64,000 bases of DNA, from NCBI RefSeq assembly GCF_003334405.1, contig NZ_QOWM01000012.1. One strand, 5' to 3'. Below, piece by piece: positions 1 through 26,032 of the stretch. Under the pieces are notes generated by a model. That model was given only the letters and a program-made list of their open reading frames with translations, was not told where the DNA came from and ran no database searches. Position 1 is the first letter of the stretch. Each line of letters begins with the position of its first letter. Origin of the DNA: Escherichia coli (GTDB lineage: Bacteria; Pseudomonadota; Gammaproteobacteria; Enterobacterales; Enterobacteriaceae). Made by a program: the position numbers and the translations under genes.

Positions 1-2534
1 GTGTTTTTCGTCCCCAAATCCGTACTGGATGCGCTGGCGCTGTGGGTGTGCGATTTAATGCCGTCCTGTTCCTGAGACAATACGGCACGACCACTGGCGG
101 GTTTGCCCTTAATCGTCCAGCCACGCATATCAGGGATCACGCCTGACGGATAAGCGGCTGCAAGTTTCGGGTATGCAGATTTGTCAAAAGTCTGTCCCTG
201 CATCAGGGCATAGCCAGACGGAACGGTATCTGATGGCCACGGGATTGGTGCGCCAGGCGGATAAAACTGCTCTGATGGCGTATAGAGTGAATAAACTGTA
301 CCGTCCGTTAACCCTTCCGGCTTATTAGCAGAATATGCTGGTGACGTATGAATCGTCACGCTGGCATTACTGGTATAATCCCATTGAATATTTACACCAG
401 TCGCATAATTTCCGATTGCAACGTAAATATCGTAAGTATCACCAGATGTATTGACCCAGGCAAAATTTGTAAACCCTGTCGATGTGCGCTGCCATAAAGC
501 ACCAGTAATCCCCTTCGGATTACCATTACCTGCACGCAAAACAAGTTCAGATATACCTGCCTGTTGAGGTGACCCCACGTTAAATCCCGCGCCACCAATC
601 AACGTAATTGAAACAACAGAACTCGCCTGTGGCATGGTTACCGTTGCTAATTTGAACCAACCAGCACCACCGCTGAATGACATTGTTGTTGAGTTAAGCG
701 TACCAATATCTTTCGGCGTCAGTGTTATATCCGCTGAAAGCGCCTTACCATTCACCTTACGGGCAGAAGGTACCCGACCATTCGCATTATCATTAGCTGC
801 TTTCACTGCTTTCGGTGTCGCGGCAAGCGTTTCAGATGCGCTGTTGGTTGCACTACTGAGCTGGACAATTCCTTTTTGTGCTGTCGTAGCGTCCTGAGCA
901 GTATATTTCCCGTTAGCAAGGTCATAGGCTGCCTTTACCGACTTTGGCGTTGCCGCCAGCATTTCAGATGTGCTGTTGGTCGCGTTGCTAAGCTGAACTA
1001 TCCCTTTCTGTGCTGTCGTTGCATCCTGTGCGGTGTATTTCCCGTTAGCCAGCTCATACGCGGCCTTAACGGCTTTTGGCGTTGCCGCCAGTGACTCGGA
1101 AGTGCTGTTAGTCGCACTGCTGAGCTGTACTATCCCCTTTTTCGTCGTGCTCGCATCCTCAAGCGCCACGGCGGATGCAATATCCTCTGCCCGTTTTGCC
1201 GCTGTCTCGGCGCGCGTTGCCGCGGATTCCGCCGTACTTTTGCTCTGAGCTGCCGCCGTCGCACTGCCAGCTGCCTCTGTCGCCTTCGTGGATGCCGTCG
1301 TGGCGCTGCCCTTTGCTGCTGACGCCTGTCTGGTCGCCTCATCTTTTGAAGCAGACGCAGATGATGCCGATGACGCCGCCGAACTGGCGGACGATGCGGC
1401 AGCCGTTTTTGAGGATTCTGCGCTGGTTTCCGACGCTTTCGCGTTCGTCTCGGATGTCTTCGCTGCGGAAGCAGACCTCGCTGCTGCGCTGGCCTGTACA
1501 GCGGCTTCGCCAGCCTTCGTTGTGGCTGTTGAAGCAGACGATGCAGCACTTTCTGCCGATTTTCCGGCGGCGGTGGCACTGGCTGAGGCCTGCCCGGCAC
1601 TTGTTGACGCGGCACTGGCAGATAATGCAGCCGCTGTTTTTGAGCCTGCCGCAGCTGAGGCGCTCTGTCCCGCTGCCGTTTCAGAAGACCTGGCGTTCGT
1701 CTCGGACGTTTTTGCCGCCTTCGCAGAATTTGCTGCCGCCGTTGCCGAGGAAGCTGCGCTGCTGGCGCTCGAGGCTGCGTTCGTTTCTGATGATTTTGCC
1801 GCCTCTTTTGAAGCCGACGCATCCCGTGCTGAAGTGGCTGCTTCTGACGCTTTCGTGGTCGCGGTGGATGCAGAAGTGGCTGCTGATTGTTGTGACGCTG
1901 CCGCATTCGTTTCTGACGTTTTCGCCGCACCGGCACTGGTAGCCGCCGCGCTTTTTGAGGACTCTGCAGCGGCAGCACTTTTTGATGCCTCAGAGGCTTT
2001 TGCTGATGCCGTTCCTGCGCTGGAAAAAGCCTCCTGAGCCGACGTCGCGGCCTGTCCGGCTGACGTGCTGGCTGCACGTGCTGAGCCTGCAGCATCAGTC
2101 GCATGGGTTGCCGCCTCACTGGCAGATGTGCTGGCATCACTGGCTGACTTCTTCGCGGCTGCCGTGTTCTGTGCCACTGCGGACGCGTTACGCACCACCT
2201 CTTCCACCATCAGTTCAAAACGTCGCAATGCCTCCGGACGGGCATCATCCTCCGTCATGGCACCGAGAAAATCATTCAGCGTACCGGGTTGAGAATCTTC
2301 ATACACGGTGATGGTCCCGGCATGTGACGGCGGGAATCCTTCCACCAACAGAATAACGCTGTACTGACCGTACTCAACGTCCATGCTGTAACGCCCGGCT
2401 TCATCCGGATTTTCTGAGGCCAGCGTGTTCACCACCACCGTGGTGCTGTTACGTTTTGCTTTCAGCTGGATTGTGCAGTTCTGTACCGGTTTTCCTGTGC
2501 CGTCTTTCAGTACACCTGAAATCTTTACTGCCAT
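1..2534 (-). CDS. stf: Side tail fiber protein Stf, partial (C-terminal end lies beyond the window start)
   Basis: Minus-strand ATG at 2534 gives [30 protein letters not shown]..., matching the lambda Stf N-terminus; a fragment at 1141-1200 translates [19 protein letters not shown] in the same frame; my manual scan of that frame from 1140 to 1 found no stop. Absent from the ORF track because it has no stop inside the window. Confidence 0.8.
780..1150. repeat. About 2.5 tandem copies of a ~132-bp unit inside stf (44-aa peptide repeat)
   Basis: Recurring blocks gctgttggt...tttcccgttagc...ggcgttgccgccag at ~132-bp spacing. Confidence 0.6.
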
Positions 2535-2545
2535 ATTCACCCCAC

Positions 2546-2576
2546 AAAAAAGCCCGCCTGAACCGGCGGGCTGTCA
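2546..2576 (-). terminator. Putative rho-independent terminator between lom and stf
   Basis: Minus-strand hairpin gcccgccggttcaggcgggc followed by a T-run. Confidence 0.5.
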
Positions 2577-2598
2577 TAACACTGTGTTACCTGGCTAA

Positions 2599-3198
2599 TC
2601 AGAATTTATAACCGACACCCATGATGAAACCGTCAGTGCGCCAGTCGCCACTGCCGGAGCCTTCATAAGCAATATCAATGGCCACGGATTCGGTCGGGTT
2701 AAACTGCACGCCAGCTCCCCACGCCAGAGACGTGTTGCTGTGGCGACCGTCATCACTTCCGGTCAGCACGTCGTGCGTTTTCCCCTTGTTGTCAGTTACG
2801 CGGAGATAATCCCCGGAGAAAGTCGACACACGGCTGTAAGCCACACCCGCCATCGCATACGCGCTGAACCATTCATTCACGCGCACAGACGGCCCCGCCA
2901 TCACGCTGAACCAGCGGTTACGAACGGAATCTTCATGCCAGCGGGTATCGCTGTAATGGGTCAGCTGGCGATTCTTGTCTCCTGCATAGCTGAATGACGT
3001 CACCATCCCCAGTGTGTCCGTAAACTCATAACGGTATTTCACGTTAATCCCGTTCAGATCATCGCTGCCGGGAACGTTCGTCGAGGCATGAAGATACCCC
3101 GCGCTCAGCGTGGACTGATGTTCAGATGCCCATGCAGGCGCACCGGATACGGCCAGACAAATGGCTGCGGAAAAAATGGCGGCATAAAGTTTACGCAT
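2599..3198 (-). CDS. lom: Lom/Ail-family outer membrane beta-barrel protein
   Basis: 199-aa ORF with signal peptide MRKLYAAIFSAAICLAVSGAPAWA and C-terminal GVGYKF; sits between J and stf as in lambda. Confidence 0.85.
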   Translation of the reverse strand: MRKLYAAIFSAAICLAVSGAPAWASEHQSTLSAGYLHASTNVPGSDDLNGINVKYRYEFTDTLGMVTSFSYAGDKNRQLTHYSDTRWHEDSVRNRWFSVMAGPSVRVNEWFSAYAMAGVAYSRVSTFSGDYLRVTDNKGKTHDVLTGSDDGRHSNTSLAWGAGVQFNPTESVAIDIAYEGSGSGDWRTDGFIMGVGYKF

Positions 3199-3220
3199 AA
3201 TTACCTCTCGCTTTTCTGCA

Positions 3221-3250
3221 ATAAAAAAGGCACCATTTCTGGTGCCCTTA
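3221..3250 (-). terminator. Putative rho-independent terminator downstream of the J remnant
   Basis: Minus-strand hairpin ggcaccagaaatggtgcc followed by ttttttatt. Confidence 0.45.
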
Positions 3251-3267
3251 TATGGGTTATAACAATT

Positions 3268-5294
3268 TCAACGAATACTGATGCCGGAAGCGGCTTTTTT
3301 GGTCACAATCACCGTACAGTCGGTGATATTACCTGCCCGCTGATTGCCTTTATGGAAAACCTTAAACTCCAGAGTGACGCTTCCCCTGCCACTCGGCATA
3401 TCAATAACCGCACTGTAGCTACCGGGAATGGCCCCTTTAGTTTCTCTGGATGCGATTAATACACCGTTTTTGCGAACTTCAAAACCATAACCCGTGTATC
3501 TTGTACCTCCCGGGTTATTACCACTTCCCGGATCGCTATACGCTATTCCGTTAAAGATAATGGGCGGAATAATAATCTGACGGTCAAAGTTATGATCATC
3601 GCTGATGGTGACTGTAACCGTCCCGTTTGGTGTTTCCGTGTTACCCCACGTACCAGCCTGTTTCGGAAATGATTTGGATACAGCTTTAACGAAGTCACCT
3701 CTGACCTGAGTCGCCTCCAGCATGCCCTTAATCGTACAGTTTTCATTTACCGTGACATTGTTGAGCGTCCCGGCGTTCGCATTCACACTGCCACTGATAT
3801 CCGCATTTTTAGCGGTCAGCTTTCCGTCCGGTGTCAGGGAAAATGCCGGTGGATTTCCACCGCTGGTAATGGTGGGGGCCGTCAGGCGTTTCAGGAACAC
3901 GTCGTTCATGAATATCTGATCGCCCTGACCAACAAACATCGGTTTTGTGTTGCCATTCGCAGGATTAACCATCGCAATCCTGTCCGCCGCCAGCAGCACC
4001 TGACTCTGCATGCCGTCAGGGGTGTTCTCAATACCGGCACCAATACCCGCGATATAAAGGCGTCCGTCCTGCATCTGCTGCAGCTTCACAGCCCACATGC
4101 TGTTCAGGTTATTATTTGTATCAACCTGAACCTTCTGTATCTGCTGAATTGCCGCACTCTGGTCTTCCAGTTTCTTATTGACGGTCTGCGTGATTTCATT
4201 GCTGACATCCGTAATGGACGTCCTGATTTCAGCCAGGTCAGGCGCAAGCTGACCGTTATCAATCTGCGTCCACAGCTCCTGAGCCAGATGGGTTTTCCCT
4301 ATCTCGCCTTTGAAAAAATCCAGATAGCCGGATGCATCATCACTCGGCCGACCAACAGCCTCCACGAATGCCGATTTGCCAACGGTGTTCACACTGCGAA
4401 CGTAAAAATAATAATCATGGCCCGGTTTGATATTGATACTGGCGGCTATCCAGTACAGCGCCGTACCAAGATAACGCGCGCTGGTTTCAACCTGCCTGAT
4501 ATCAGCAATCCGTTTTTCCGAGAACCAGAACTCAAACTGTACCGTCGGATCATAAACCGCAAGATGCGGCGTGGCGGTTATCTGAAAATAGCCCGGCGTC
4601 AGCTCAATCCGCGACGGCGCTGCCGGTGCGGCAACAGGCGCTGGCGCAACGTCGGCAGCTTCAGCCCCCATACGCTGTATTCAGCAACGCCGTCAGGAAC
4701 ACGGCTCACTTTCACCTTCACGCCGCCGGTGACGGACTGAACCTCCACGCTGACCGGACTCCCCTGCCCGTCAACCAGGCTTATCAGCGTGGTACCGGAG
4801 GATGGCAGCGTGATTTCACGGTCGAGCGTCAGCGTCCGGGTCTGGCTGTTTACCGCCAGCACGCGCCCGCCGGTGCGGATACCGGCATAGTCATCATCGC
4901 AGATTTCAATGACATCGCCCGGTACATGGCGAAGCCCTTCGGCACCCACGCTGAAGTCCACGGTCTGCGTTTCCAGCAGTTCTGTTTTAATCAGCCACAG
5001 CCCGGCGCGGTGTGCCTGCCCCCGGCTGGTACAGCCAAAGGCATCCATCTTCGTGACGTTACGACCGTAACGGGCAATGGCCTGCGTGTCCTCCACAAGC
5101 TCTGTTGCCGTCTCCCAGCCGTTGTCCGGGTCAATCCAGTTCACCTCAACGGCATTATGGCGGTCCTTCAGGGCGCTGAAGCTGTAGCGGAACGGCGCGT
5201 CATCATCCGGCATCACCACATTACTGCGGTTATAGGTCCACACCTTATCCCGAAGAAAACACCACCAGAGAGACCGCAGGTCCGGACAGAGCAT
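3268..5294 (-). pseudogene. J: Tail tip host-specificity protein J remnant: N-terminally truncated, with an internal out-of-frame deletion near 4640-4680
   Basis: ORF 4599..5294 matches the central region of lambda J (FRYSFSALKDRHNAVEVNWIDP...[14 protein letters not shown]); ORF 3268..4671 matches the J C-terminus ([36 protein letters not shown]...); the two frames overlap at 4599-4671. Confidence 0.8.
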
Positions 5295-5413
5295 TCAGCT
5301 CTGCCAGTGTTTCTCCCGGGATCACAGTCATATCGACATCATTAATCGAGGCTGTCTTTCCCATCTTTCTGACCGTGATAGCATCCATACGCGCTGCCAG
5401 CCGGGAAAAGGGA

Positions 5414-5782
5414 TCAGACATTGAGTTTTACCGGCACTTCTTCTGCACTGGTTCCGGCATCTGCCCAGACAACCCCGACCAGCGGATCAGAGCCGCTGTT
5501 AGTCAGCTGAATTTTTCCGGACTTCAGATAAACCTTCTTACCCGTTTTCATGTCATCCGTTTTCAGCTTAGGCAGCATAAACACACCTTCGGTCATGCCG
5601 TCGCCTGTTTCACCCTGTGGAATATCGGTCAGCGCCACCGCAAAAACATCGCCCACCTGCACCAGATCTCCGCTGCTGATGGCTGCACTGGCAACAATCG
5701 CCACCGTTTTTCCTTCTTCTACAAAATTCTTTGCCATAACTGTCTCCGCACAGCCCCGTTCAGGGGCTGATTTCAGGTACAA
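5414..5782 (-). CDS. Small head decoration/cement-like protein (DUF2190-like)
   Basis: 122-aa ORF MAKNFVEEGKTVAIVASAAISSGDLVQVGD..., directly downstream of the capsid gene. Confidence 0.6.
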   Translation of the reverse strand: MYLKSAPERGCAETVMAKNFVEEGKTVAIVASAAISSGDLVQVGDVFAVALTDIPQGETGDGMTEGVFMLPKLKTDDMKTGKKVYLKSGKIQLTNSGSDPLVGVVWADAGTSAEEVPVKLNV

Positions 5783-5823
5783 AAAAAGCCCTTACGGGCC
5801 ATCAGAGTTGTTGTCTGCGACGT

Positions 5824-7782
5824 TTACGCCGTACATTTCACCAGACCGCGGTGATCAACTGGCGCGACACCGGCGTCAATACGCACTTTCGTTGTCACGC
5901 CATCCACACTGAAGCCCTCCATCTGATCAATATATGGCGTATCCACACCGTTGAGATAAGCCACTTCAATCGTATCGGAGCCTTTTGACGCAGCCAGGTA
6001 GAAGGTGGTCTGGCTGTTATCATCAAGACGAGGCTCTGCAATAACGGTCGCAAAATCTTTCACCGGGTTAATAATACCGGCGTTAATGTCAGCCCCCTTG
6101 ACACTTGAGGAGCGAATGACCTGGTTAGCAACAGACTCCATCGCCGTCGGTACCAGTACGAACGCAGGACGAATATTCAGATGACGCTCCCCCTCTTTCT
6201 GAACGCGCATCAACTGGCGGGCTTTATCCAGCGATGCCACGTCCATTGCAGCGCTCTCCAGTACGTTTGCATGTTTCGCTTTATCGAACAGACTTACATT
6301 ATCTGTGGAGATTTTCGGGTTAGACGTCAGAATGGCATAAACCAGATCGGCAATAGTGGATTTCGCCGCACGGCCCAGTTTCATCGGGACATCGGTCAGC
6401 ATATTCAGATCATCATTGATAATGGCCTGACGGGTGATACTGAACAGCTCGCCATAGGTCGCCAGTGCAATAGTGGCCTGTTTATCTCCGGTGGTGACGT
6501 ATTTATATTCCGCCCCTTCACGCACCTGACGCAGAGCACTGAAGCCCCCCATACCCACACGATGGGCAATTTTAAAATCAGACAACTGACCTTTCCGCGT
6601 CCACTGTTCATAGGTTTCAGGGGCATCTTCCCAGCCCTGCAGAATGGCTTTGTTCGCAACATCCAGCAGAATATTACCGAAGTCAGACGTACTGTGTGTG
6701 AACGCCGCACCGACCATCTGCATCGGGTTATAACCGGAAACCCCAATACCCCGTTCAGTTAGTGACATACGGGCATATTCACGCAGGGTCATCCCGTTGT
6801 AGACATTATCACGTTCGGTTTTTTCAAATCCGGCACGCGCCATCAGCGCCTGGCGAATCCCGTCCCCCACAAAATTACCGTTACCGGCATAAATATGAGC
6901 CGGGGTATTTTTATTGGATGGCGTGGACTCGCGCCCCATCTCGTTCAACAGCTTTTCACGGGCCTGCTCCAGCGAACATTCAGGATCGGCAAGACACTGA
7001 GCCTGCAGCGTCTGATAACGCCCGCCAAACATGGCAAACAGATCATTAATACCGTTTACACGCGCTTTTTGCTCTGCCAGTACCTGCGCACGGATGCTGT
7101 TTTCATCCACCACGGGTGCTGCTGCCTGCACTGGCGTCCGGGAGGCTTCAGATTCATTATCCTGTACGCGTGGAGCACTGTTGCGTGGCGGAGTAATCAT
7201 GTTTCGAATGGATTCCGGCATCTTTTTAAATTCCTCTGTACGTTTTGACTGAATACATGCCATTGCCTTAACGGCTGGCGTTACCTGATCAGCAAATCCA
7301 TGTGCCAGACATTCGGCACCGGACATCCAGGTCTCATCCGCCAGCATGGCAGCAATTTCATCGGTGGTTTTCCCGGTTTTCTGTGCATAAGCGGGTAACA
7401 GAACCGCCTCAACTTTATCGAGCAGGTCGGCATAGGTGCGCATGTCCTCCGCATCACCGCCCGTAAAGCCAAATGGTTTATGAATCATCATGAAGGTGTT
7501 TTCCGGCATAATGACCGGGTTTCCTACCATCGCAATGACCGACGCCATTGACGCCGCCACACCGTCGACATAAACGGTAATGGACGCACCATGTGTTTTC
7601 AGCGCATTAAAAATGGCGATGCCTTCAAAGACATCGCCACCCGGTGAATTAATATGGAGATTAATGTGGGTGATATCGCCCAGTGCATTCAGATCACTGA
7701 TAAACTGCTTCGCTGTAACACCCCAGAAACCAATCTCGTCATAAATATAAATATCCGCGTCACTCTGGTGACCAGCCTGCAT
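5824..7782 (-). CDS. ClpP-like prohead protease fused to an HK97-fold major capsid protein
   Basis: ORF track gives 5824..8043 (739 aa); the first ~87 codons overlap the terminase ORF, so the likely start is the ATG at 7782 (MQAGHQSDADIYIYDEIGFW). ClpP-like block NSPGGDVFEGIAIFNALK...ASMASVIAMVG, then a capsid-like C-terminal half. Confidence 0.8.
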   Translation of the reverse strand: MQAGHQSDADIYIYDEIGFWGVTAKQFISDLNALGDITHINLHINSPGGDVFEGIAIFNALKTHGASITVYVDGVAASMASVIAMVGNPVIMPENTFMMIHKPFGFTGGDAEDMRTYADLLDKVEAVLLPAYAQKTGKTTDEIAAMLADETWMSGAECLAHGFADQVTPAVKAMACIQSKRTEEFKKMPESIRNMITPPRNSAPRVQDNESEASRTPVQAAAPVVDENSIRAQVLAEQKARVNGINDLFAMFGGRYQTLQAQCLADPECSLEQAREKLLNEMGRESTPSNKNTPAHIYAGNGNFVGDGIRQALMARAGFEKTERDNVYNGMTLREYARMSLTERGIGVSGYNPMQMVGAAFTHSTSDFGNILLDVANKAILQGWEDAPETYEQWTRKGQLSDFKIAHRVGMGGFSALRQVREGAEYKYVTTGDKQATIALATYGELFSITRQAIINDDLNMLTDVPMKLGRAAKSTIADLVYAILTSNPKISTDNVSLFDKAKHANVLESAAMDVASLDKARQLMRVQKEGERHLNIRPAFVLVPTAMESVANQVIRSSSVKGADINAGIINPVKDFATVIAEPRLDDNSQTTFYLAASKGSDTIEVAYLNGVDTPYIDQMEGFSVDGVTTKVRIDAGVAPVDHRGLVKCTA

Positions 7783-7795
7783 CCTGAACCAGGAA

Positions 7796-9592
7796 TTATT
7801 CTTCGGACTGGTCGTCGGTGTGCTGCGGCTCCTGTCGTTTCGTTGCGGCACTACTGCCTCCTTTATCACTGGCCGGATCGGTATCAAATACCAGATCCAG
7901 CTTGCGGTTTTCATCAATTTCGGCCTTGCGCCGACGTTTGACATCATCCGGATTACGACCACCAGCACGTACCCAGTCTGATTCTGTCGCCGCTCCACCA
8001 CGAATCTGGATTTTCCAGGCCTCAGCCTCCTTAACAGGGTCAATCCACGGCATCACTGGTCCGGAATACACCGCGGTATACAGTGAAGAACGGTCAAGAT
8101 CGCGGGGTAGCCTGATAACACCGGATGCCACAGCCTGTTTCAGCCACGCACGATACATCGGGCGGGTGACGGCACCAATAAACCAGTCCTGCAGGATCAG
8201 GTAGCTGGCCGGATCAATTCGCTGGCTCTCCCCGTCGCTGTCACCGCGCAATGACTGCGTGATGTTGTAACGATCAATAATCCAGCGTTCGCCACGGCTG
8301 CCATAGCCCGTTACCTGAACCACAAAACGGCGATGACGTCCCGCCTGCACATCCACTGTCGCCACAAGGAAATTAACGCCATCCGGCACACTGCGGGAAG
8401 GAACTGGCTCTGCCCGCTGCTCAAGCAGTTCACTTTTTCGTTGCTCCATGCTGGCGCGGGGAAGATAAGGTAATCCCCAGTCGGTATTGATAACCGTCTT
8501 GAGTGTTTCTTCACTTCCGGTTGTCTCGTATTCCTGTTCTGCAGTAAGCAGTTTGTAAACGAGTTGCGAGAGTGTCTGGTAAGCAGCTGCCGGACCCTCC
8601 ATCCAGAATGACGCAATACGTGAGCGTCGGGGATCACCATAACGACTGCCATCCGCATTGATGGATTCACCATCCCGCAACCAGACCCCACGTCCGTTCA
8701 GCTCACGTTTGTGTTCAGGCATAATCCGTCCTGAACAGGAAGGACACTGAATATAAGCCGCCTCACTTGCCAGCACGGGATCGGCAATATCACGGAAACC
8801 AGCAACCACATCGCCGCAGGGCTGAAAATACTCACCACAGTGTGGACAGGGCCAGTACCAGCGACGGCGATCGCCACGGTTATAGAGCGACAGTATCCCC
8901 GTGGTTGGTGGAGCCTCATGCGGTGAAGTCCGTCGCCATTTCACATCCTTCACATCCCTGCCGGGGGAACTCTCCACAAGCGTCATACCACTGGACATAA
9001 ATGTTGTGGTACGTTTTGAGGCAAGAGAGAAAGCATCCCCCTCGCCATCAATATCTTCCGGAAAACGGTCATAATCCGTCAGCGCGACGCATTTATAATC
9101 TGATGAGGACATGATATTGACTGACGGCCAGCCGATTTTCAGGTAGTTACCAGCAAGGAATGTTCTGTCATAAACGTTGTTGTCATTTTTGTTCGGACTC
9201 AGGCGACTGACCACTTCCGGGCTGACGCGAAACGTTCTGGCGAGTCGTTTTTTGGAGTGTTCGCGGGCTTTTTCCTCCGTCATCTGAATGATCAGCATAT
9301 CAGCAGGATCGCAAATCACGTTGTAAATCACCCAGCCGTCAATCAGGCCGATAGTCTTGCCGGTTCGTGCCGGGCCAACAAATATCACTGCGTCGTATTC
9401 ACGCGAGGCCAGGCAGTTCATCGGCTCAATAACATACGGTGCCACCAGCGGATCCCACGGGACTGAGTTCCCTGCCCCCATGGGCACCCGCATATACTGA
9501 GCAACGGCATCAGCAACCCGCATTCGTCTCGGTGCGCGAAGGATATAACCTGAATCGGTTCGTGCTGCCTTTGCGGTTTCCTGATTCAGCAT
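7796..9592 (-). CDS. Terminase large subunit, lambda GpA family (the C-terminal ~90 aa may be a fused remnant, see findings)
   Basis: 598-aa ORF with Walker A VGPARTGKT and zinc-finger-like WPCPHCGEYF...CPSCSG, typical of GpA-type terminases. Confidence 0.85.
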   Translation of the reverse strand: MLNQETAKAARTDSGYILRAPRRMRVADAVAQYMRVPMGAGNSVPWDPLVAPYVIEPMNCLASREYDAVIFVGPARTGKTIGLIDGWVIYNVICDPADMLIIQMTEEKAREHSKKRLARTFRVSPEVVSRLSPNKNDNNVYDRTFLAGNYLKIGWPSVNIMSSSDYKCVALTDYDRFPEDIDGEGDAFSLASKRTTTFMSSGMTLVESSPGRDVKDVKWRRTSPHEAPPTTGILSLYNRGDRRRWYWPCPHCGEYFQPCGDVVAGFRDIADPVLASEAAYIQCPSCSGRIMPEHKRELNGRGVWLRDGESINADGSRYGDPRRSRIASFWMEGPAAAYQTLSQLVYKLLTAEQEYETTGSEETLKTVINTDWGLPYLPRASMEQRKSELLEQRAEPVPSRSVPDGVNFLVATVDVQAGRHRRFVVQVTGYGSRGERWIIDRYNITQSLRGDSDGESQRIDPASYLILQDWFIGAVTRPMYRAWLKQAVASGVIRLPRDLDRSSLYTAVYSGPVMPWIDPVKEAEAWKIQIRGGAATESDWVRAGGRNPDDVKRRRKAEIDENRKLDLVFDTDPASDKGGSSAATKRQEPQHTDDQSEE

Positions 9593-10086
9593 TACTCCTC
9601 CTGCTGTAATTCCTCCTCATCATCCGCACCTGCTTCAGTCACCCGCAGGGCTATCTGATCGCGCAGATCATCAATAATGGACTGAACACGGCTCACAGCG
9701 GCAGGCTGCAGACCGCAGTCACGTTCAAGAATATCCGGTAATGTCTCCAGCACCTGCACGACCGCTTTTGCCCAGATGGCAAACTCCCGTCTGACATCAC
9801 TGGCCGGAATGAGTTGTGCCGTTTCCTGTTCGAACTTAAGACGCTCACGTTCAGACTGATACCAAGCTTTGCGCTCATGCGCGTCCATTTCGCCTTCTGC
9901 AACCGGCGGTGGTAATGCCAGAAATGCCGACACAATATCAACCACCCGATAAAGCTTGAGGTTGCTTTCATGCCCCCCTGCAACGGGTAGATTTTGCAGC
10001 CTTGCCGCAGCAGTCTGGCGATGTACACCTGACAGTGCCGCCAGTTGACTGATATTCAGCGTCAGATTTTTCAACTCTCGATCCAT
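9592..10086 (-). CDS. Terminase small subunit (Nu1-like)
   Basis: 164-aa ORF directly upstream of and overlapping the terminase large subunit start; N-terminal HTH-like LTLNISQLAALSGVHRQTAAARL; acidic C-terminus. Confidence 0.75.
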   Translation of the reverse strand: MDRELKNLTLNISQLAALSGVHRQTAAARLQNLPVAGGHESNLKLYRVVDIVSAFLALPPPVAEGEMDAHERKAWYQSERERLKFEQETAQLIPASDVRREFAIWAKAVVQVLETLPDILERDCGLQPAAVSRVQSIIDDLRDQIALRVTEAGADDEEELQQEE

Positions 10087-10249
10087 ACCCGCTCCAGAAT
10101 GTTTTAAACATGCATCTTGCGAACAACTTTAGGCAAACGGTGTTAGCGATGAACAAAAAACAATCAAAATCGACACCGTAAAAATAAAAACACTGTAATA
10201 TCAATATATTACAGTAGTGGTGATGACGAATAAAATTTCAAAAACTAGC

Positions 10250-10290
10250 CTTTTTCCGCGACGCTCCCGCCCCGTGGCAGGCCACCCCAC
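10250..10290. other. Candidate cos site
   Basis: Minus-strand CACGGGGCGGGAGCGTCGCGG followed downstream by TTCGTCAT, resembling lambda cosN GGGGCGGCGACCTCGCGG...CTTCGTCAT; lies just upstream of the Nu1-like gene. Confidence 0.4.
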
Positions 10291-10539
10291 CGGAAGGACC
10301 CGCCAAAATGAGAGTGATTATCACCATTGCTGATGAATAAATTGATGAAAATCATTGAAACGCCTTTCAGCAAGATAACGGCGACGGTCGTTGTTGAACT
10401 CCGTAGCTCTGCTACTAAGGTTAAAAGCATGGCCATCTTTTGCCACCGGCAAATCTTCAATGGATTTCCCCTGCCGGTTTTTTATTCCTCACATTATCGC
10501 AGCCCCTCAGTGAAGGGCTGCTGTAATGCCTGCTCTTAC

Positions 10540-10902
10540 TCAGTAACGACCGCGCCTTCCGGTAATTTCATACCGGCAAATACCGGACAGCCCGGGGATC
10601 GTTATCTGCAGCTGGTTAGCCAGGGAGTTAATCTCAGCGACCAACACTGGCTTCGTATAGCGCCATGCCGCCAGCCCTTGTCCACAGAAGCTCGCCATAT
10701 CTTTTTTCTGATCAAACTCATGACACTTCATATTGAGCTGCGCACTTAAGCTGTTGCGATGCTGAAGTTCTCCGGTGAAGTAGTCATCCAGGACTTTATA
10801 GGCTGCATATTTAAATCCGGGGTTTAGCCATGCTGCATAATCATAAGCAACAAACTTCCCGCCATATGTTCCACCGTGTACACCGCGCTCAGTAAAAACC
10901 AC
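10540..10902 (-). CDS. Hypothetical phage protein with a KilA-N-like motif
   Basis: 120-aa ORF; GGTYGGKFVAYDYAAWLNPGF resembles the conserved KilA-N core also seen in the 265-aa ORF at 16986..17783. Confidence 0.45.
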   Translation of the reverse strand: MVFTERGVHGGTYGGKFVAYDYAAWLNPGFKYAAYKVLDDYFTGELQHRNSLSAQLNMKCHEFDQKKDMASFCGQGLAAWRYTKPVLVAEINSLANQLQITIPGLSGICRYEITGRRGRY

Positions 10903-10923
10903 AGATTCGTGTTTTTTCTCCAG

Positions 10924-11391
10924 CTACTTAATGCGCTGGGTGCGGATATATTCCTGCGCCCCTTCCAGTTGCTTCTGCATCGTCATCAACCGTTCTCTGA
11001 GGGTGAAATAATCCCGTTCAGCGGTGTCTGCCAGTCGGGGGCTGGTTGCATTATCCATGCTGGTGGGTCCGGTGGCTTCACGCACGGCTGCGGAGCAACT
11101 GGCATTGACCCGCAGGCGCTTACGACCAGCGGCAACATCAGCGCGCAGAGTTTCATTTTCAGTTTTCGCATCGGCTAACTCCTTCGTGTATTTTGCATCG
11201 ATCGCAGCAACATCACGCTGACGCTGCTGCATGTCAGCGATGGTGGCGGTCGCCTGCTTCAGCTCACTGACTTTTTTATCACGCTGTTCTTTGTAGGCGA
11301 TGGCGTTATCACGGTAATGATTGACCGCCCACGACAGGCAGACGATGATGCAGATAACCAGAGCGGAGATAATCGCGGTTACTCTGCTCAT
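10924..11391 (-). CDS. Rz: Spanin inner-membrane subunit Rz
   Basis: Strongly similar to lambda Rz ([31 protein letters not shown]...); ORF track start is 11403, likely start is MSRV at ~11391. Confidence 0.85.
10986..11171 (-). CDS. Rz1: Spanin outer-membrane lipoprotein Rz1, embedded in Rz in another frame
   Basis: 61-aa ORF with lipobox LVVSAC and proline-rich [29 protein letters not shown], as in lambda Rz1. Confidence 0.8.
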
Positions 11392-11885
11392 TGTTGCCCC
11401 CACAAACAGACTTCACGCTCAATCTCACGACGAGTCATCAGGCCTTTCCATTGCTTACCGCCAGCGTATGTCCAGCGACGTAGCTGGTCACATGCGCCTT
11501 TGATATCGCCCTGGTTGATTTTGCGAAGAAGCGTCGATGTTCTGAAATTGCCAGCACCCACGTTGTAGACGAACGAGTAAAGAGCGCCGCGCGTTGTTTC
11601 CGGTATATCGACTTTGATGTACGGGTTAATTTGTCTGGCGACCGTGGCAAGGTCTTTATTCAGGAGGGCTTTGCATTCTGCTTCGGTATACGTTTTACCT
11701 AGCATGATGTCTTTTCCGGTGTGTCCGTGACATACAGTCCATACGCCAACGATATCTTTGTATGGTATGTAGCTGACACCTTCCAGGCCATCGTCACCAC
11801 TCGGACCAGTGATGAGCACAGACGCTATGGCAACAGCCCCACCACCAATAGCAGCAGCAACAGCCTTGCGTAATGATGGCGACAT
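11388..11885 (-). CDS. R: SAR endolysin (phage lysozyme, phage 21 R-like)
   Basis: 165-aa ORF with an N-terminal weakly hydrophobic signal-anchor-release segment [18 protein letters not shown], then a lysozyme-like domain. Confidence 0.9.
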
Positions 11886-12100
11886 TATTCACCTCTCGCA
11901 GCCTTACGCTTATCTTCTTTAATCTTGAAATAAAGGTTTGTCAGATACGTCAGCAAGCCAAATACCAGACTACCTAGCACACCTATTGCCGCCCACTGTG
12001 AGGGCGTGACTTTATCGAGCAACTGTAAAAACCAGTACCCGGCACTACCTGCTGAGGTGCCATAGGCGACACCCGTTGTTAACTTATCCATGGATTTCAT
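11885..12100 (-). CDS. S: Pinholin (phage 21 S-like)
   Basis: 71-aa [29 protein letters not shown]... with the dual-start MKSM motif and two transmembrane segments, paired with the SAR endolysin. Confidence 0.9.
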
Positions 12101-12166
12101 AACCCCACCTCGCAGATGCGGGTGCTGTGTAATGGAAATAAAAAGGCCACCTACGTGGCCACCAGA

Positions 12167-13219
12167 TTATTTCCCCACCAGCTCGTTTATCTCTTTCACT
12201 GTCTGGTTAAACCGCTCTGACTCAAGCTCAACACCTAAGGCCCGACGCCCCAGCGCCATTGCTGCTTTTATTGTGGAACCGGATCCCATAAAAAAATCAG
12301 CAACCAGATCACCAGGTCGACTACTGGCATTGATTATTTGCCGGAGCATATCCGCAGGTTTCTCACACGGATGTTTACCCGGGTAGAACTGAACGGGTTT
12401 ATGCATCCAGACATCGGTATAAGGCACGGAGACTGATACGGAGAAATAGCGCCGGAGAGATTTAAACTCATCCAGCAATTCAGAATATTTGCGATTCAGT
12501 GAATCATAAGATGCCACCAGCTGGTGGTGTGGTTGTTCCAGTTGTTGTTCCTGAAACTTCTCTGCCGCTATACGGGAAAACAGTGCCTGTAACTTCCGAT
12601 AGTCAGCCTCATTCGGCAACTGCCACTGACTGGCACCAAACCAGTGGGAAACCATATTTTTCTTACCTGTGGCTTCGGCAATTTGTTTTGCCGTTATACC
12701 CAGTTCGGCACGAGCATCCCTGAAATACGATATCAGCGGTGCCATTATGTGCTGTTTGAGTTCCCTTTCTTTTGCCGCATAGCCGTCACTTTTGCCGCGA
12801 TATGGCCCCTGGTAATGTTCAGCAAACAGAACGCGCTCTGTGGCAGGAAAATATGCGCGCAGACTTTCTTTATTACACCCATTCCAACGTCCGGACGGCT
12901 TCGCCCAGATGATATGGTTAAGCACGTTGAAACGTTCACGCATCATGATCTCAATATCAGATGCCAGGCGATGCCCACAGAACAGGTAAAGGCTTCCGGC
13001 AGGTTTCAACACCCGCCAGAACTGGGCCAGACAGTGGTCCAGCCACTTAAGGTAATCTTCGTCCCCTTTCCACTGATTGTCCCAACCGTTGGGTTTCACC
13101 TTGAAGTAAGGCGGATCGGTAACAATCAGGTCAATGGAATCATCAGGCAGGGACTGAATAAAATGCAGGCAATCAGCGTTGATTAAATCAACACTGTTTA
13201 TTTTTACAGTATTTTTCAT
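12167..13219 (-). CDS. Orphan DNA methyltransferase (N6-adenine/N4-cytosine beta class)
   Basis: 350-aa ORF with motif IV DPPY near the N-terminus (LIVTDPPYF) and motif I FFMGSGST near the C-terminus. Confidence 0.85.
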   Translation of the reverse strand: MKNTVKINSVDLINADCLHFIQSLPDDSIDLIVTDPPYFKVKPNGWDNQWKGDEDYLKWLDHCLAQFWRVLKPAGSLYLFCGHRLASDIEIMMRERFNVLNHIIWAKPSGRWNGCNKESLRAYFPATERVLFAEHYQGPYRGKSDGYAAKERELKQHIMAPLISYFRDARAELGITAKQIAEATGKKNMVSHWFGASQWQLPNEADYRKLQALFSRIAAEKFQEQQLEQPHHQLVASYDSLNRKYSELLDEFKSLRRYFSVSVSVPYTDVWMHKPVQFYPGKHPCEKPADMLRQIINASSRPGDLVADFFMGSGSTIKAAMALGRRALGVELESERFNQTVKEINELVGK

Positions 13220-13368
13220 GGATCAGTAAGCGTAACTCTGGTAGGCTCACTCTGCTTTTGCGCTAAAGCAGTGGGCCGTGGTTCGCTTGTGACCAGTAAG
13301 CATGAGCGAATGGCTGGCAGGTGCTACCAACACCCACCAGCCGCCCATTTTCACAAATTAAAAGTCCT

Positions 13369-13587
13369 TCATTGCTGAAGGCGTCTGTAACAGCCGAACT
13401 GGTAATCTGCCAGCCCCGCCATAACCAACTGGGTCAGTATTAACTGACAGCGTTCGCGTGAAAGATATGTGTTTTGTGCAATCTCCCCGACTGTTGCCGG
13501 TTCGATGCTTAATTCATTAAAAACAACTTTCGCCGTTTCTGTCATATCTTGCTGTTTTAGCATGTCTTTTTTCCTTCTGGTTAACAT
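13369..13587 (-). CDS. Small hypothetical protein, possible winged-helix DNA binder
   Basis: 72-aa ORF; segment TVGEIAQNTYLSRERCQLILTQLVMAGL looks HTH-like. Confidence 0.4.
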   Translation of the reverse strand: MLTRRKKDMLKQQDMTETAKVVFNELSIEPATVGEIAQNTYLSRERCQLILTQLVMAGLADYQFGCYRRLQQ

Positions 13588-13662
13588 GACATACCAATAA
13601 CTCTTGTCTAAAAAGCCAGCAAGATAAAAAGTCAGTATTCACGACCACCAGCGTGTTTACCG

Positions 13663-13697
13663 TACTGCACCAGGTTTACAGGTACAAAAAAACCCGC
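13663..13697. terminator. Strong intrinsic terminator hairpin, candidate tR'-type element on the minus strand
   Basis: aaaaaaacccgctcgacggcgggttt; the minus-strand reading has the stem followed by seven T. Confidence 0.45.
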
Positions 13698-13975
13698 TCG
13701 ACGGCGGGTTTAAGTTGTGTGGCGAAGTAACCACTCTTGAGAGCATATCTGATTATTTACGATTGTAAATAATATATTCCCCCCAATAATTAGATTGAGA
13801 AAACATTACCATATTGATAATAAGGCAATTGACATAATTATAAAAATCATTCTTGGTTGATTTTAAAACAACAAATGCACGATATTTACCCAATCATTGA
13901 TGAATACATCTCTAAATGTTATAAATTTATTGTTTTTCTAAAGATAACTCTCATTCATATCAGGAAAGATAAAAA

Positions 13976-15427
13976 ATGTCAGACATAAAAAATATACTAA
14001 AATGCATGTACTTTGATAAAAATAGATACTCAAACTTTGGCTCCGTAATTAAAAGTCTAGAGATAAATGGATTTCGAGGAATAAAAAAACTAACATTAAA
14101 TATAAATTTTCCGGTAACTGCAATATCAGGGCTAAACGGCGCTGGGAAAAGCACTCTTGGGCAGTTAGCAATATGCGCATATAAAAAACCAGTTACAGCC
14201 CGTGAATATAAGAGATTATATATTAAAGATTTTTTCCCTGTATCTAAAGCCGATCCAGCCCCTTTCGATAATGACGCCAGTGTCATTTATAAATATGAAA
14301 CAAATGATTCAACGAAAACACAAGATGTGACTGTCACTCGCATAAAGTCTTCTTGGTCTGGATATAAAAGACAACCAGAAAGACACTGTTTTTACATTGG
14401 TTTTACTGTCTATATTCCAAAAGTAGAACGTAGAGATATAAGTGTTTATGGCGGTAAAGACTTTGATTTAACAGAGAGAAGAAGCGTCGACCATTCAGTA
14501 ATATTGAAGATGGCAAAAATAATAGGTCATCCATATGATGATATCGCATTCCAAGGAATTTCTCATAGAGCACGTCGTTCAGAAATTGGTATTGTTGAAA
14601 GACTTGGGTATTCTTATTCTGAAAATAACATGGGGTTTGGCGAAGGAAGAGTTCTTTATACGGTTGATATGCTTGAAACAGCTCCAGAGCAAAGTCTTTT
14701 CGTACTAGAAGAACCAGAAACATCTCTTCATGAAAGCGCACAGTATGAATTTGCAAAATATTTAATGGAAGTATGTCAACGTAGAAAACATCAAATAATA
14801 TTATCAACACACTCAAGTGTGATATTAAATGCTTTACCTCCTGATGCACGAAAATTACTTATTAGAGATCAGACTGGTGTCTATATCAAAGATGGAATTT
14901 CAACAACTCATGTGAGATCAATACTGTCTGATGGGCAGTTTAAAGGGCTGCATATTTGCGTAGAAGACCAGTTTGCAAAAGTTTTACTTAGTGAAGTAAT
15001 TAGAGCAAAGCGGAGAGACATTCTTAAATCCATTCAAATCACTGATATTGGAGATAAAGATGCAGTCCGACAAGCAGTCGAGGTATTCAAGAAAGCAGGC
15101 CTTAATGTTATTGCCGTAAGAGATGCAGATGTTGGAGAAAACATTAAAGATGATTTATTTTCTTTCCCTGGCAATAGGCCACCAGAAGTAGAAGTATTTC
15201 AACATGAGGAAGTAAAAAAATTCCTCTACAAGGAGTATCATATTGATTTTGATTGGTTAATAAAAAAGGAAGGGATTAGTGATCATCACAATTACACTCA
15301 AGCAATTGCTAAAGAAGCAGAATGTGAGGAGGAAGTAATTAGAACTTTAGCAATAAAAAAATATATTGAAATTATTGATGAGAAATTTGACCCACTTATT
15401 ACAAATATAGTAAGCAAAATAAAATAA
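13976..15427 (+). CDS. OLD-family-like ABC ATPase with C-terminal TOPRIM-like nuclease motifs; candidate single-gene anti-phage defence moron
   Basis: 483-aa ORF on the opposite strand to the phage operons, in an AT-rich island; Walker A GLNGAGKST, Walker B/D-loop LFVLEEPETSLH, H-loop LSTHSS, then ICVEDQ and IAVRDADVG (Toprim-like E and DxD); SD aggaaag upstream. Confidence 0.8.
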   Translation: MSDIKNILKCMYFDKNRYSNFGSVIKSLEINGFRGIKKLTLNINFPVTAISGLNGAGKSTLGQLAICAYKKPVTAREYKRLYIKDFFPVSKADPAPFDNDASVIYKYETNDSTKTQDVTVTRIKSSWSGYKRQPERHCFYIGFTVYIPKVERRDISVYGGKDFDLTERRSVDHSVILKMAKIIGHPYDDIAFQGISHRARRSEIGIVERLGYSYSENNMGFGEGRVLYTVDMLETAPEQSLFVLEEPETSLHESAQYEFAKYLMEVCQRRKHQIILSTHSSVILNALPPDARKLLIRDQTGVYIKDGISTTHVRSILSDGQFKGLHICVEDQFAKVLLSEVIRAKRRDILKSIQITDIGDKDAVRQAVEVFKKAGLNVIAVRDADVGENIKDDLFSFPGNRPPEVEVFQHEEVKKFLYKEYHIDFDWLIKKEGISDHHNYTQAIAKEAECEEEVIRTLAIKKYIEIIDEKFDPLITNIVSKIK

Positions 15428-15599
15428 CAAACCAGCAGGCGCTAATTACTAAAAACCTTGTACATTAGCGCCACCCTCAAATAAATTAGTGGTTATTAAA
15501 TCCCCACAAAAACATTAATATAAAGCACAAACAGTCCACCCTCCTTAATTTCATGCTAACAATACAAATTAAAAATCCAGATACTCATAAAATATCTTT

Positions 15600-15986
15600 C
15601 TAGATATTTGAGTCCATTTCCAATTCTATTTCTAACATTATCAACATACCTTCAATGATGCCTTCTGCCTTTTGCAATAAGCGCCCAACCCAGCAATCAG
15701 AACGCCCATGTTTACGGGCAAGCGCCATAAACGTCATACCACCTACATAATAATCTACTAATAAATCGTGCAAATCGCTGTTGTTCTTTTTCAGACGGGC
15801 CATGCACCCGCAAATGATCATCGCGTCATCGTCACAACATTGCGGACGGGATTTTACTTTTGAAGGAAGTAATCCCTTAAAACCGGCAGCAATGGACGAC
15901 CAGGTCACATCCTCATGATTATTAGCCGCCCATGCCCCCCAACGTTCAAGAACCATTTGAATATCACGCATCAACTTCCTCCACAA
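15600..15986 (-). CDS. Q: Late-gene antitermination protein Q
   Basis: 128-aa ORF with Cys-rich zinc-binding block [14 protein letters not shown]; sits upstream of the lysis and packaging genes. Confidence 0.8.
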
Positions 15987-15988
15987 AA

Positions 15989-16984
15989 TCAGGCCAGCAC
16001 GCCTATTGCCAGCGCACGATCGATAAAACGAAATATCAGCTCCAGCTGGGAACCATACTTCTCTTCAAATGCCACGGTATCCGCATGCAGCTCGTCGTGA
16101 TGCTTTCTGCACAAAGGCAACACAAAGAGGTCATGCGCTTTTGTAGCCATTCCACCCTGACCGTGGCCTATCAGGTGGTGGGGATCATCAGCAGGCTTTC
16201 CACAACATGCACACGGCTGTGTCTTAACCCAGCGTGTGTACTTTTCATTAACCCAGCGGCGACGTTTTGGGCGTAACATAAAAGACTCCGGCGACTCCGG
16301 ATCCACTTTCAGCGCCAGCACCTTTTTCGCCTTATCCTGGATGATGCTGGTGGCAGGAACCGAAGGCACAAGGTCACTTTCCCGGGTGACAGACGGCACA
16401 ACAGGCTTCGGTAATCTCAGTGCCTTACGGGCTGCACTTTCCGGTAAGGCATCCGCCAGGTCATTACGAATCAGCCACCAGCACAGTTCCGGCATTGTCA
16501 CAACGTGACTGTCATCAAAACCGAGATCCCGACGCACAACAGACAACACCCAGCGGGCACAGTTATCCGTTGCCATTGATTCCAGCCGTTCCGTGAACTG
16601 ATCACGCAGCTGGTTATCGCAGTGCCAGCACAGACGGATTGCGCCCGGCGCGTGTCGCATTGTTGTCATGTTCTCGCTGTGCCAGTCGGAATGAGGCCAC
16701 TGGCAGCCTTTTTCACGAAGTAACCAGCTTTCAAGACATTCCACGCCACCAGCACGACGGATCACTGCCTCATTGCGGAACACGGCCCGAACGGCAGGAT
16801 CATCCGCCAGCGGTTGTGATGCCGCCGGAACGGCACCACTGGCGAAAGATGAATAACGTTCCGGCTCAGGCTCCAGCAGGACACGCCCCTGCATAAACAG
16901 GGGCATCAGCTCTGAACCTGGTCTGAACAATACGATCCCCATACGCGGGGCAATTTCAGGGGTCAGTAGTGCTCTCACGGTCAC
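15989..16984 (-). CDS. Phage protein (DUF968-like) with a C-terminal Cys/His zinc-binding motif
   Basis: 331-aa ORF; C-terminal [14 protein letters not shown]...CRKHHDELH. Confidence 0.65.
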
Positions 16985-16985
16985 C

Positions 16986-17783
16986 TCAATGAACGGTATC
17001 GAGCAGCTTTAACAGCTCAGGGAATCGGGATTCGAAGAAATGCGGCTGCGTCTCGCGCGGATTTGCGGGACTGGTGATGTTCTTGCCGAACATGCAACCT
17101 TTCGCTGTCAGCGACCAGAATTTTTTGATGTTGTTAATCGCGGTACGGCTGTATCGTTCGCGTTGTTCCACGATCCCCAGCTTCGCCATCTGGTGATATG
17201 CCTGATTAGCCGTCAGGCAGATACCATACTGTTTCAGCAGTGCACTCAGTGACAGTGTCGGGCGACTTGAGCCATCAGGCGCGTCAGCAGGAGCATCAAT
17301 GGCATAGCGTGGTGCCAGATTCGGTAAGCCAACAGCCTCCTGGAGTTTCTGACAGGCCCCAAGCACAGATGAGTTAGACAGGTTTAACTCCCGGCGCATA
17401 AAGTCCAGCAGAATCACGCCAGCCTGCATCTTGTCAGCAGCCTGCCCGGATAATTTTTCCGGTGCGCTGGTTACCATATCGAAAGTACGGATCACCTTCA
17501 GATGGAATGACGGGCTGATCCACATTGCATAGGCATACACCAGTTCTTTGCAGACATACGTCCCCTGGTTATTTCCGCCACGACTAACGTTAACTGGCTC
17601 TATATTGACCGAGTTGCAAATCTGCAACTCGCTTATTAAACGTTCGGTTTGCTCATTGCGGAGCCAGAATGCAGGCTTATGCTTATCCTGAGAACCGGCA
17701 GCCCTGTGCAGATCGTTCAGGCTGTAACGCCCATAAGCATCACGACGAACTTCAATACCATCAATGACCATCAGATTATTCAT
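16986..17783 (-). CDS. KilA-N domain protein (antirepressor-like)
   Basis: 265-aa ORF; N-terminal MVIDGIEVRRDAYGRYSLNDLHRAAG and GTYVCKELVYAYAMWISPSF are typical of KilA-N. Confidence 0.7.
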   Translation of the reverse strand: MNNLMVIDGIEVRRDAYGRYSLNDLHRAAGSQDKHKPAFWLRNEQTERLISELQICNSVNIEPVNVSRGGNNQGTYVCKELVYAYAMWISPSFHLKVIRTFDMVTSAPEKLSGQAADKMQAGVILLDFMRRELNLSNSSVLGACQKLQEAVGLPNLAPRYAIDAPADAPDGSSRPTLSLSALLKQYGICLTANQAYHQMAKLGIVEQRERYSRTAINNIKKFWSLTAKGCMFGKNITSPANPRETQPHFFESRFPELLKLLDTVH

Positions 17784-17802
17784 ACTTCGTTTCTCCTCTT
17801 AA

Positions 17803-18192
17803 TCAGGCGGCTGCACCCGCCGTTTTCTCGTACTTACTGATAGTGATCTCGACCTTCCCTTCCGGGATAACCGGCCCCCACTCCACCAGCATTCTTTTCA
17901 CCTGGCTGTCGTCTTCCCACACCCCCGCGTGGGTCAGGGCGTCAAACAGCGCCTTGTTATAGTTGTCCAGATCGCGGATCCGGTTATCCGGAGGAAACAA
18001 CACGATCTCCACTGAAGCAGGTGCCGACGTTGGTTTCGGCAGACGACGTAACTGCTCAACTATTGCTGCGCACGCCGCGCTCTGGAATTTTCGCCCCGCC
18101 TCGCTTATCAGGCTTTTACCTACAAACGCCCCTTTGTTGGGGTGTCGCCAGTACGTGTTCACGCTGGGCGGGAAAGGCAAGATCAGCTTCAT
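17803..18192 (-). CDS. rusA: RusA-family Holliday junction resolvase
   Basis: 129-aa ORF LILPFPPSVNTYWR...DLDNYNKALFDALT. Confidence 0.85.
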   Translation of the reverse strand: MKLILPFPPSVNTYWRHPNKGAFVGKSLISEAGRKFQSAACAAIVEQLRRLPKPTSAPASVEIVLFPPDNRIRDLDNYNKALFDALTHAGVWEDDSQVKRMLVEWGPVIPEGKVEITISKYEKTAGAAA

Positions 18193-18515
18193 ACTTTCAG
18201 GCCTCTCTCATGTAACCAGTGGGCTGCACGCAGCCTGGCTTTTTCCTCACCGGCAAGCAGTGCGCGGATAATCCCGACCGCCTCGCTGTCGTCGTCCTTC
18301 ACCGCGGTATGAAGCGTTATCCCCCGGGCCACGCCACGCTTTATCGTGATGACGCCTTTTTTCTCCAGTGCACGAAGATGCTCTACCGCTGCATTCACTG
18401 AACGGTATCCCAGCATGGTTGCCACCTCCTGATTGGTTGGCGGAAAGCCACGCTCTTTCTGGTAAGAAATCAGCATATCCAGCACCTGCTGCTGGCATTG
18501 AGTTAACGTCGTCAT
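18189..18515 (-). CDS. Phage regulator with a LexA-like N-terminal DNA-binding domain
   Basis: LTQCQQQVLDMLISYQKERGFPPTNQEVATMLGYRSVNAAVEHLRALEKKGVI resembles the LexA winged-helix domain; ORF track start is 18548, probable start is MTTLTQ at 18515. Confidence 0.55.
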   Translation of the reverse strand: MTTLTQCQQQVLDMLISYQKERGFPPTNQEVATMLGYRSVNAAVEHLRALEKKGVITIKRGVARGITLHTAVKDDDSEAVGIIRALLAGEEKARLRAAHWLHERGLKV

Positions 18516-19009
18516 TACGCCCCCACGTAATTCCCTGACAGATACCACTCATCACTCGATACAGCGCGCTTGCTGCTTTTCCGTAAACACTGCTCACGAC
18601 GCGCCAGAAAATTGTTTCGTTCTGGCTGGGAGTGGCTTTCACGGAATGCCACCATCCACACCGTTGCAGCACGACGGTATAAGCCCCTGGACTCCAGTTC
18701 TTCAGCCTGGCGGGTCAGGCACAAAATCTCCCGCTGGTCGTTAGTGCCGACATAGAAATTGCGCACAGGTCTGGTTTCACGAACTGGTTGCGGTTCCGCC
18801 TCCTGCGCTCTCTCAGTCAGGCGCGGGAAATGTCTGCGTGTATCCCCTTCACAACGGTGAGCCACACGACCACTCTGACGTAACTTGCTTGCTGACTGCA
18901 GAACGCGCTGCCGTGAGTAACCTGCAAAAGCATCCGCAATGTCTCCGGAAGTACACCCCGGATGGGCTTCAATGAATTTCTGAACGTCATTCAAAAGACT
19001 CATAATCAC
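18515..19009 (-). CDS. PerC/Pch-like regulator homolog
   Basis: 164-aa ORF; LESRGLYRRAATVWMVAFRESHSQPERNNFLARREQCL resembles the PerC-family core. Confidence 0.5.
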   Translation of the reverse strand: MIMSLLNDVQKFIEAHPGCTSGDIADAFAGYSRQRVLQSASKLRQSGRVAHRCEGDTRRHFPRLTERAQEAEPQPVRETRPVRNFYVGTNDQREILCLTRQAEELESRGLYRRAATVWMVAFRESHSQPERNNFLARREQCLRKSSKRAVSSDEWYLSGNYVGA

Positions 19010-19947: not shown

Positions 19948-19956
19948 GACCGACCT

Positions 19957-20295
19957 CTATTTCCCTGAATTTACGACGAAACTGTTCGAGCGGACTGAAG
20001 CACTCATGCTCATAGCCTTCGCGGAGGTAGATAACCCGTTGTGTTTCCGGTTCCCAACGAATGACTCTGACGGGCACTCCGTAGTGATCTTTGAACCAGC
20101 GGTTAACTTGTCGCAAAGGACTGTCTCCTTCTGCCGGTTGAAATCCCCCACAGCCCACTCTGCAAAGCTGTGGGTTACAATTTCCCTGTCACCTGGTACA
20201 TTCACTGCATAGCAATACTCCACCTTCGCTTTTCCACCCGGTACAGGAAGCGCAATCAGTTGCGAGCGACGGTAGTGTGTTGTTAAACTGTTCAT
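19957..20295 (-). CDS. Hypothetical phage protein
   Basis: 112-aa ORF whose ATG overlaps the upstream stop as ATGA; an alternative 73-aa ORF at 19937..20158 in another frame cannot be excluded. Confidence 0.35.
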
Positions 20296-21882: not shown

Positions 21883-22086
21883 TTTTTATACTTGACAATG
21901 TACCTTTGAGATACATAATGTACCCAAGAGAAACAACAAACAGGCAGGACGCTCACGAAGTAGCCGCCTGGGGCATATGAAGTCCAGGATGATTCGTTAG
22001 CAACAAAAAAGCGCCCTACAGGACGCTTAGCTCTTTAACAATCTGGTCCCCATCAACAAGTAACTGATAACTTGAGGAGGTGTGAA

Positions 22087-22699: not shown

Positions 22700-22739
22700 T
22701 TCTTTTCCTTTTGCGTTGTTGGGGATAACCAGATTAACC

Positions 22740-25917: not shown

Positions 25918-26032
25918 CCCTGAAAGGACATGTTCACGAACGTGAATCACGGTGGACAAGGTTAAAACTAACCGGGCGATGCGTCAATGGCCTTGTGAAT
26001 CAAATGGCTACTTTTGCATCACCCGGTTTTAT

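Follow-up and report, generated by a model that had tools for sequence, protein, structure and literature searches.

The window, by which we mean the whole 64-kb stretch of E. coli DNA analysed, carries on its minus strand a homologue of the phage lambda tail-tip gene J that lies in two pieces. J fragment 1 (4634–5250, −) comprises J codons 366–571, including most of the Pfam Phage-tail_3 region, the hub domains, and has no start codon of its own; it continues into a frameshifted end (4599–4631, −) that stops at TGA 4601–4599. J fragment 2 (3268–4632, −) comprises J codons 712–1165 and the stop codon, with an open frame that reaches upstream to an ATG at 4671, and it retains the FNIII-2/Ig_J_second, Phage_Tail_Tip central fibre and Ig_GpJ_C receptor-binding domains. 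Neither fragment contains further stop codons or indels. A terminator-like hairpin that is kept in phi458 lies past the J stop codon (3226–3249, −), and an intact lom gene for an Ail/Lom outer-membrane protein (2599–3198, −) is situated directly downstream of the J remnant; the J-lom-stf gene order and the terminator after J are the same as in lambda and phi458. The contig begins within the side tail-fibre gene downstream of lom (1–2534, −). Positions 269–1206 of this gene have no match in the related prophage of E. coli YZMc17-1 and so appear to be a mosaic tail-fibre segment, and a 336-residue sub-ORF (1130–2140) gave no PHROG match.

The homology of these pieces to gpJ is clear, with 95–99% nucleotide identity to phi458 J (nt 407–3904 of the extracted phi458 stretch; OP434518, Orf42), 79–95% identity to lambda J (NC_001416 nt 15505–18903) and matches to PHROGs 31 and 2148. 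Compared with lambda and phi458 J, however, codons 1–365 and 571–711 are gone, what remains is split between two reading frames, and the tail genes that lie upstream in those phages are missing. The window thus has no continuous ORF of ∼1,130–1,165 codons with the full J domain series (taken as FNIII-A, hub domains, FNIII-1, FNIII-2, central fibre and receptor-binding domain), and its J homologue does not close a tail operon with H, M, L, K and I ahead of it.

The first-pass annotation had quoted two J translations and proposed that two lambda-type J segments were joined out of frame by an internal deletion, with the upstream frame stopping past the junction. Both translations are real, being the end of the minus-strand ORF 4599–5294 (the upstream J frame) and the start of the minus-strand ORF 3268–4671 (the downstream J frame), and the rest of the proposal is borne out by alignment. 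BLASTN matches window 5250–4628 to phi458 J nt 1095–1716 (95.8% identity) and window 4634–3268 to J nt 2132–3498 (98.9% identity), and these two collinear pieces abut at window 4633/4632. The junction (4632–4633, −) reads ...CAGCGCCTGTT/GCCGCACCGGCAGC..., where the slash marks the breakpoint, with a 2-nt TT microhomology, and the longer sequence spanning it is ...CGCCTGTTGCCGCACC.... In intact J the left breakpoint reads ...CGCCTGTT/CCGCTGCG... and the right breakpoint ...CCGGATT/GCCGCACC...; only TT is common to both, together with an offset CCGC that accounts for the 7-nt apparent overlap of the two alignments, an alignment artefact. The gap is exactly 421 nt whether measured against phi458, the intact YZMc17-1 prophage or lambda, in which the nucleotide alignment across the junction places the absent stretch at nt 17221–17641. 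This corresponds to 140 codons plus 1 nt (140×3+1), residues 571–711, and the first-pass figure of roughly 180 missing codons was therefore too large. Since 421 is not a multiple of three, the J segments are out of frame, and translation from fragment 1 would end at the TGA 31 nt beyond the junction. Neither the deleted 421 nt nor J nt 1–1094 has a copy elsewhere in the 64-kb window. When window 3200–5450 (−) was compared with phage genomes by megablast, many lambdoid phage J genes matched, always in two pieces, and the same two-piece match, in which 401 nt of query extend over 822 nt of subject, was obtained in 4,324 of the 5,426 complete E. coli genomes.

The residues removed from J (571–711, FRCVSIREND...SVSFRI) can be placed on the protein. 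In intact J, Pfam assigns the first Ig-like domain (Ig_J) to residues 610–714 and Ig_J_second to 716–818. Structures of J in the lambda tail tip have been solved (PDB 8IYK and 8K35), and in the cryo-EM structure of lambda gpJ hub domain IV is followed by a linker and then by FNIII-1 and FNIII-2, past which lie a helix bundle, the central fibre and the receptor-binding domain (PMC10721106). On this correspondence, the 421-nt loss takes out the linker and FNIII-1 and ends almost exactly at the FNIII-1/FNIII-2 boundary. The C-terminal J fragment (window 3271–4671, −) also aligns with the extreme ends of two head-gene profiles, phrog_15 (terminase large subunit) and phrog_94 (head maturation protease), which implies that head-gene::J fusion proteins of decayed prophages have probably been built into those families.

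A concern raised at the outset was that the junction might be an assembly error, such that the FNIII-1 region is truly intact and a short-read assembler misjoined J segments, for example among several prophage J copies. The source is a draft whole-genome shotgun contig, J-like sequences occur in a median of 2 and as many as 8 copies per E. coli genome, and multiple copies of this kind are a classic cause of misassembly. However, a Logan assembly of SRR3989531, made with a different assembler, contains a contig on record in 3 samples that matches window 222–11028 (10,807 nt) at 100% identity, all three of the deletion junctions described in this work included. The exact 231-residue frameshifted J product is present both in that assembly and in the NCBI draft contig QOWM01000012.1 (GCA_003334405.1), which is 100% identical to window 1–19592 and of which the window is the first 64 kb. 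The junction is therefore found in more than one assembly, and its end points share 2 nt only, leaving no repeat of k-mer length that an assembler could collapse. A search of phi458 J for long direct or inverted repeats bracketing the deletion found none beyond chance. A weak inverted pair of 14 nt with 79% complementarity does bracket it (phi458 stretch 2092–2105 and 2540–2553), and was rejected as a cause of the deletion, being no better than many chance pairs. Moreover, microhomology of this kind also marks the neighbouring deletions, one of which is common to a lineage that has diverged by 1%. The concern is thus largely answered by the Logan contig and the repeat-free end points, and a one-off artefact at the J junction is unlikely given reproduction at 100% identity in a contig from 3 samples, although those samples may not be independent of the NCBI strain. 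That FNIII-1 is intact in the genome itself we regard as very improbable.

The wider context of the J remnant was defined by comparing window 1–27000 with the intact prophage that occupies this chromosomal location in E. coli YZMc17-1 (NZ_CP123255.1 3771252–3810499). The two share the integration site, integrase, regulatory, replication, lysis and head genes at 94–99% identity. The YZMc17-1 prophage has a full set of terminase, portal, ClpP-capsid fusion, tail genes, J, lom and stf, whereas the window copy has three gaps in the morphogenesis genes, of 421, 9,155 and 2,023 nt. The 9,155-nt deletion has its junction at 5246–5250 (−), with a 5-nt GGATA microhomology, and J homology accordingly begins only at codon 365 (window 5250). 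It joins J codon 365 to a truncated FII-like/Gifsy-2-family head-tail joining gene (5245–5421, −; 58 of 91 codons; PHROG 153, Pfam Gifsy-2), and it has removed the whole tail module, with the counterparts of Z, U, V, G, T, H, M, L, K and I, together with the 5′ third of J (codons 1–365). The view of J as a gene with an internal deletion thus holds for the 421-nt loss itself, but the upstream frame is in turn an orphan fragment whose 5′ end went with the 9,155-nt deletion. The 2,023-nt deletion (junction 8202–8205, 4-nt GCTA microhomology) has produced an in-frame terminase-large::portal fusion ORF of 598 residues (7796–9592, −) that combines terminase residues 1 to ∼463 with portal residues 368–489.

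Further alignment gaps of ∼0.8–1.2 kb relative to the YZMc17-1 prophage appear to be mosaic replacements, which affect some segments of the early region. IS elements were considered for window 10302–11141, 19081–20282 and 21998–22769 and rejected, as the relative has similar or larger segments there. Between the Q antiterminator and a DNA methyltransferase, on the opposite strand, lies a gene (13976–15427, +) for a 483-residue ABC/AAA_15-type ATPase whose best PADLOC match is HEC-04 (E=4e-47), with weaker AriA/GajA-like matches; the copy in a relative is annotated as 'ATP-dependent nuclease', and the gene is probably a prophage-borne candidate for anti-phage defence. The prophage ends with a tyrosine integrase (24665–25828, +) adjoining a tRNA-Thr(CGU) gene (25843–25918, −), after which the core chromosome resumes with proA, proB and phoE. 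In other strains this tRNA-Thr(CGU) site is occupied by different prophages; E. coli FORC_081, whose chromosomal flank is 100% identical, is one such strain. The identical region (window 39001–64000) contains a second flagellar cluster of the Flag-2 kind (flgK, flgE, fliI, fliD and a glycosyltransferase).

With an integrase beside its tRNA attachment site and with terminase/portal, the tail module and J all deleted or disrupted relative to intact relatives, the element has the features expected of a defective lambdoid prophage at tRNA-Thr(CGU)/proA, with other lesions besides that in J. Defective prophages of E. coli, such as the cryptic prophages of K-12 and the pool in O157 Sakai, typically keep int, regulation, lysis and cargo genes while their structural genes are eroded by deletions. 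The window conforms to this pattern, with a lambdoid element that keeps int, regulation, lysis and cargo (lom and the candidate defence gene).

All three junctions have microhomology of 2–5 nt, the two flanks account for the whole of each sequence, and no IS or foreign DNA is present. At each of the three deletions a short direct repeat occurs at both ends in the intact sequence, with one copy kept. Junctions that consist only of the two flanks, share 2–5 nt of sequence and lack foreign DNA are a signature of illegitimate recombination or replication slippage. From this anatomy and the absence of long homology, we infer that the 421-bp loss most likely arose by RecA-independent illegitimate recombination or by replication slippage between sites that share TT and the offset CCGC. 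At least three such microhomology-ended deletions (those of 421, 9,155 and 2,023 nt) have together destroyed the morphogenesis region. With the tail genes and the 5′ third of J lost, J would no longer matter for virion production, whether this was so before the 421-nt loss or only since then, and the prophage is presumably unable to build tails. We therefore consider it highly probable that the lesion is a pseudogene lesion, in which a defective lambdoid prophage lost 421 bp of J by ordinary decay.

Both reading frames are open for ∼70 nt around the junction, as would be needed if a programmed −1 ribosomal frameshift in the 4599–4671 overlap rejoined them into one shortened J. However, direct reading of 4671–4599 revealed no slippery heptamer of the form X XXY YYZ, and fragment 1 has neither a start codon nor a ribosome-binding site, beginning in J codon 365 immediately after the stop of the truncated gene. 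In addition, the 421 nt are present in all intact relatives, where J is one continuous frame. The probability that frameshifting restores a J product is accordingly almost negligible.

The J junction was absent from the 5,426 complete E. coli genomes when searched with a 50-nt probe, and exact-pattern scans found none in GTDB species representatives, IMG/VR or JGI metagenomes. Looser patterns returned five matches from GTDB representatives and JGI metagenomes, all of which were rejected, four being unrelated sequence and one an intact J with an A>G SNP. The J junction thus appears to be a private lesion of one lineage. The same applies to the junction set (0 of 5,426 complete genomes), unlike defective E. 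coli prophages generally. A second lineage (SRR29542960, Logan) shares the terminase::portal junction with the window at 99% identity, keeps part of the tail module and has deletions of its own, among them one in which H is joined out of frame to J at the position corresponding to window 4580. As the terminase::portal junction is shared and the tail deletions differ, the terminase::portal deletion is the older, and erosion of the tail genes appears to have continued independently after it.

The sole complete genome to match the junction probe, SW070917 (NZ_CM129862.1; comparison region in the window, 4608–4657), carries a different event. At the att-lambda/bio locus of this strain, another decayed prophage contains a lambda-type terminase-A::J in-frame fusion (∼5990–6040 of the extracted stretch). 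On the right, its breakpoint is at exactly the J nucleotide where the window's deletion ends (/GCCGCACCGGCAGCGCC), and its left flank, CAGCGCCCGTT/ compared with CAGCGCCTGTT/ in the window, matches at 10 of the last 11 nt (CAGCGCCYGTT). Unlike in the window, however, the left partner is terminase gene A (...CATTATTCAGCGCCCGTT/), the fusion is in frame, the prophage and its integration site are different, and the deletion is ∼15.8 kb in lambda coordinates. GTTCC is present in all three parental breakpoint sites. A precursor allele lacking the 7-nt CCGGATT, which would explain the common breakpoint through GTTCC(G) microhomology, was not supported; no such J allele was found in complete genomes, where every full-length match is an intact J with a 7-nt gap. 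A hotspot, inheritance from a common J-deleted allele, or chance may each explain the common breakpoint, with two cases at the same nucleotide and a third, that of SRR29542960, bringing all three within 52 nt. It is unlikely that the FNIII-1/FNIII-2 position (lambda nt 17641/17642) is a recurrent, sequence-directed deletion breakpoint, or that the C-terminal module of J is preferentially kept with lom, stf and tfa.

In a related proposal, the C-terminal J ORF (467 residues from ATG 4671; gene finders predict 374) is expressed and, along with lom, stf and tfa, forms a domesticated module maintained by selection. This would account for the 455 J-derived codons that are free of stops and indels and 98.9% identical to phi458, and for the retention of J from nearly the same point in the window, SW070917 and SRR29542960, which decayed independently. 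An exact look-up of the 467-residue product found nothing, a result explained by the later start chosen by gene callers. Three cases are nevertheless too few to establish clustering, and a fragment left by a recent deletion would be expected to be free of further lesions, in keeping with a junction that occurs in one lineage only. A promoter scan detected no sigma-70-like promoter on the minus strand in 3100–5900, the fragment has no export signal, and J works as a trimer that the tail hub anchors, a hub that this prophage has lost by deletion. We thus judge selection for an expressed module to be very unlikely. The lack of additional stops and indels in the J fragments would fit recent decay, while being compatible also with selection on the C-terminal part.

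Ordinary decay therefore remains the preferred reading. Since fragment 1 lacks a start and ends early, and fragment 2 lacks a promoter-like site and the anchoring hub, the J locus is best regarded, on the sequence evidence, as a pair of pseudogene fragments. In annotation, neither 'tail-fibre gene' nor 'possible assembly error' is an apt label, and the locus should be entered as two J pseudogene fragments in a defective prophage. The breakpoint shared with SW070917 is a small lead for surveys of prophage erosion. The J lesion itself is an instance of ordinary prophage decay of a kind already known, and the prophage is best classed as non-inducible with respect to virions, although lom, side tail-fibre genes and a candidate, HEC-04-like defence gene remain in it.
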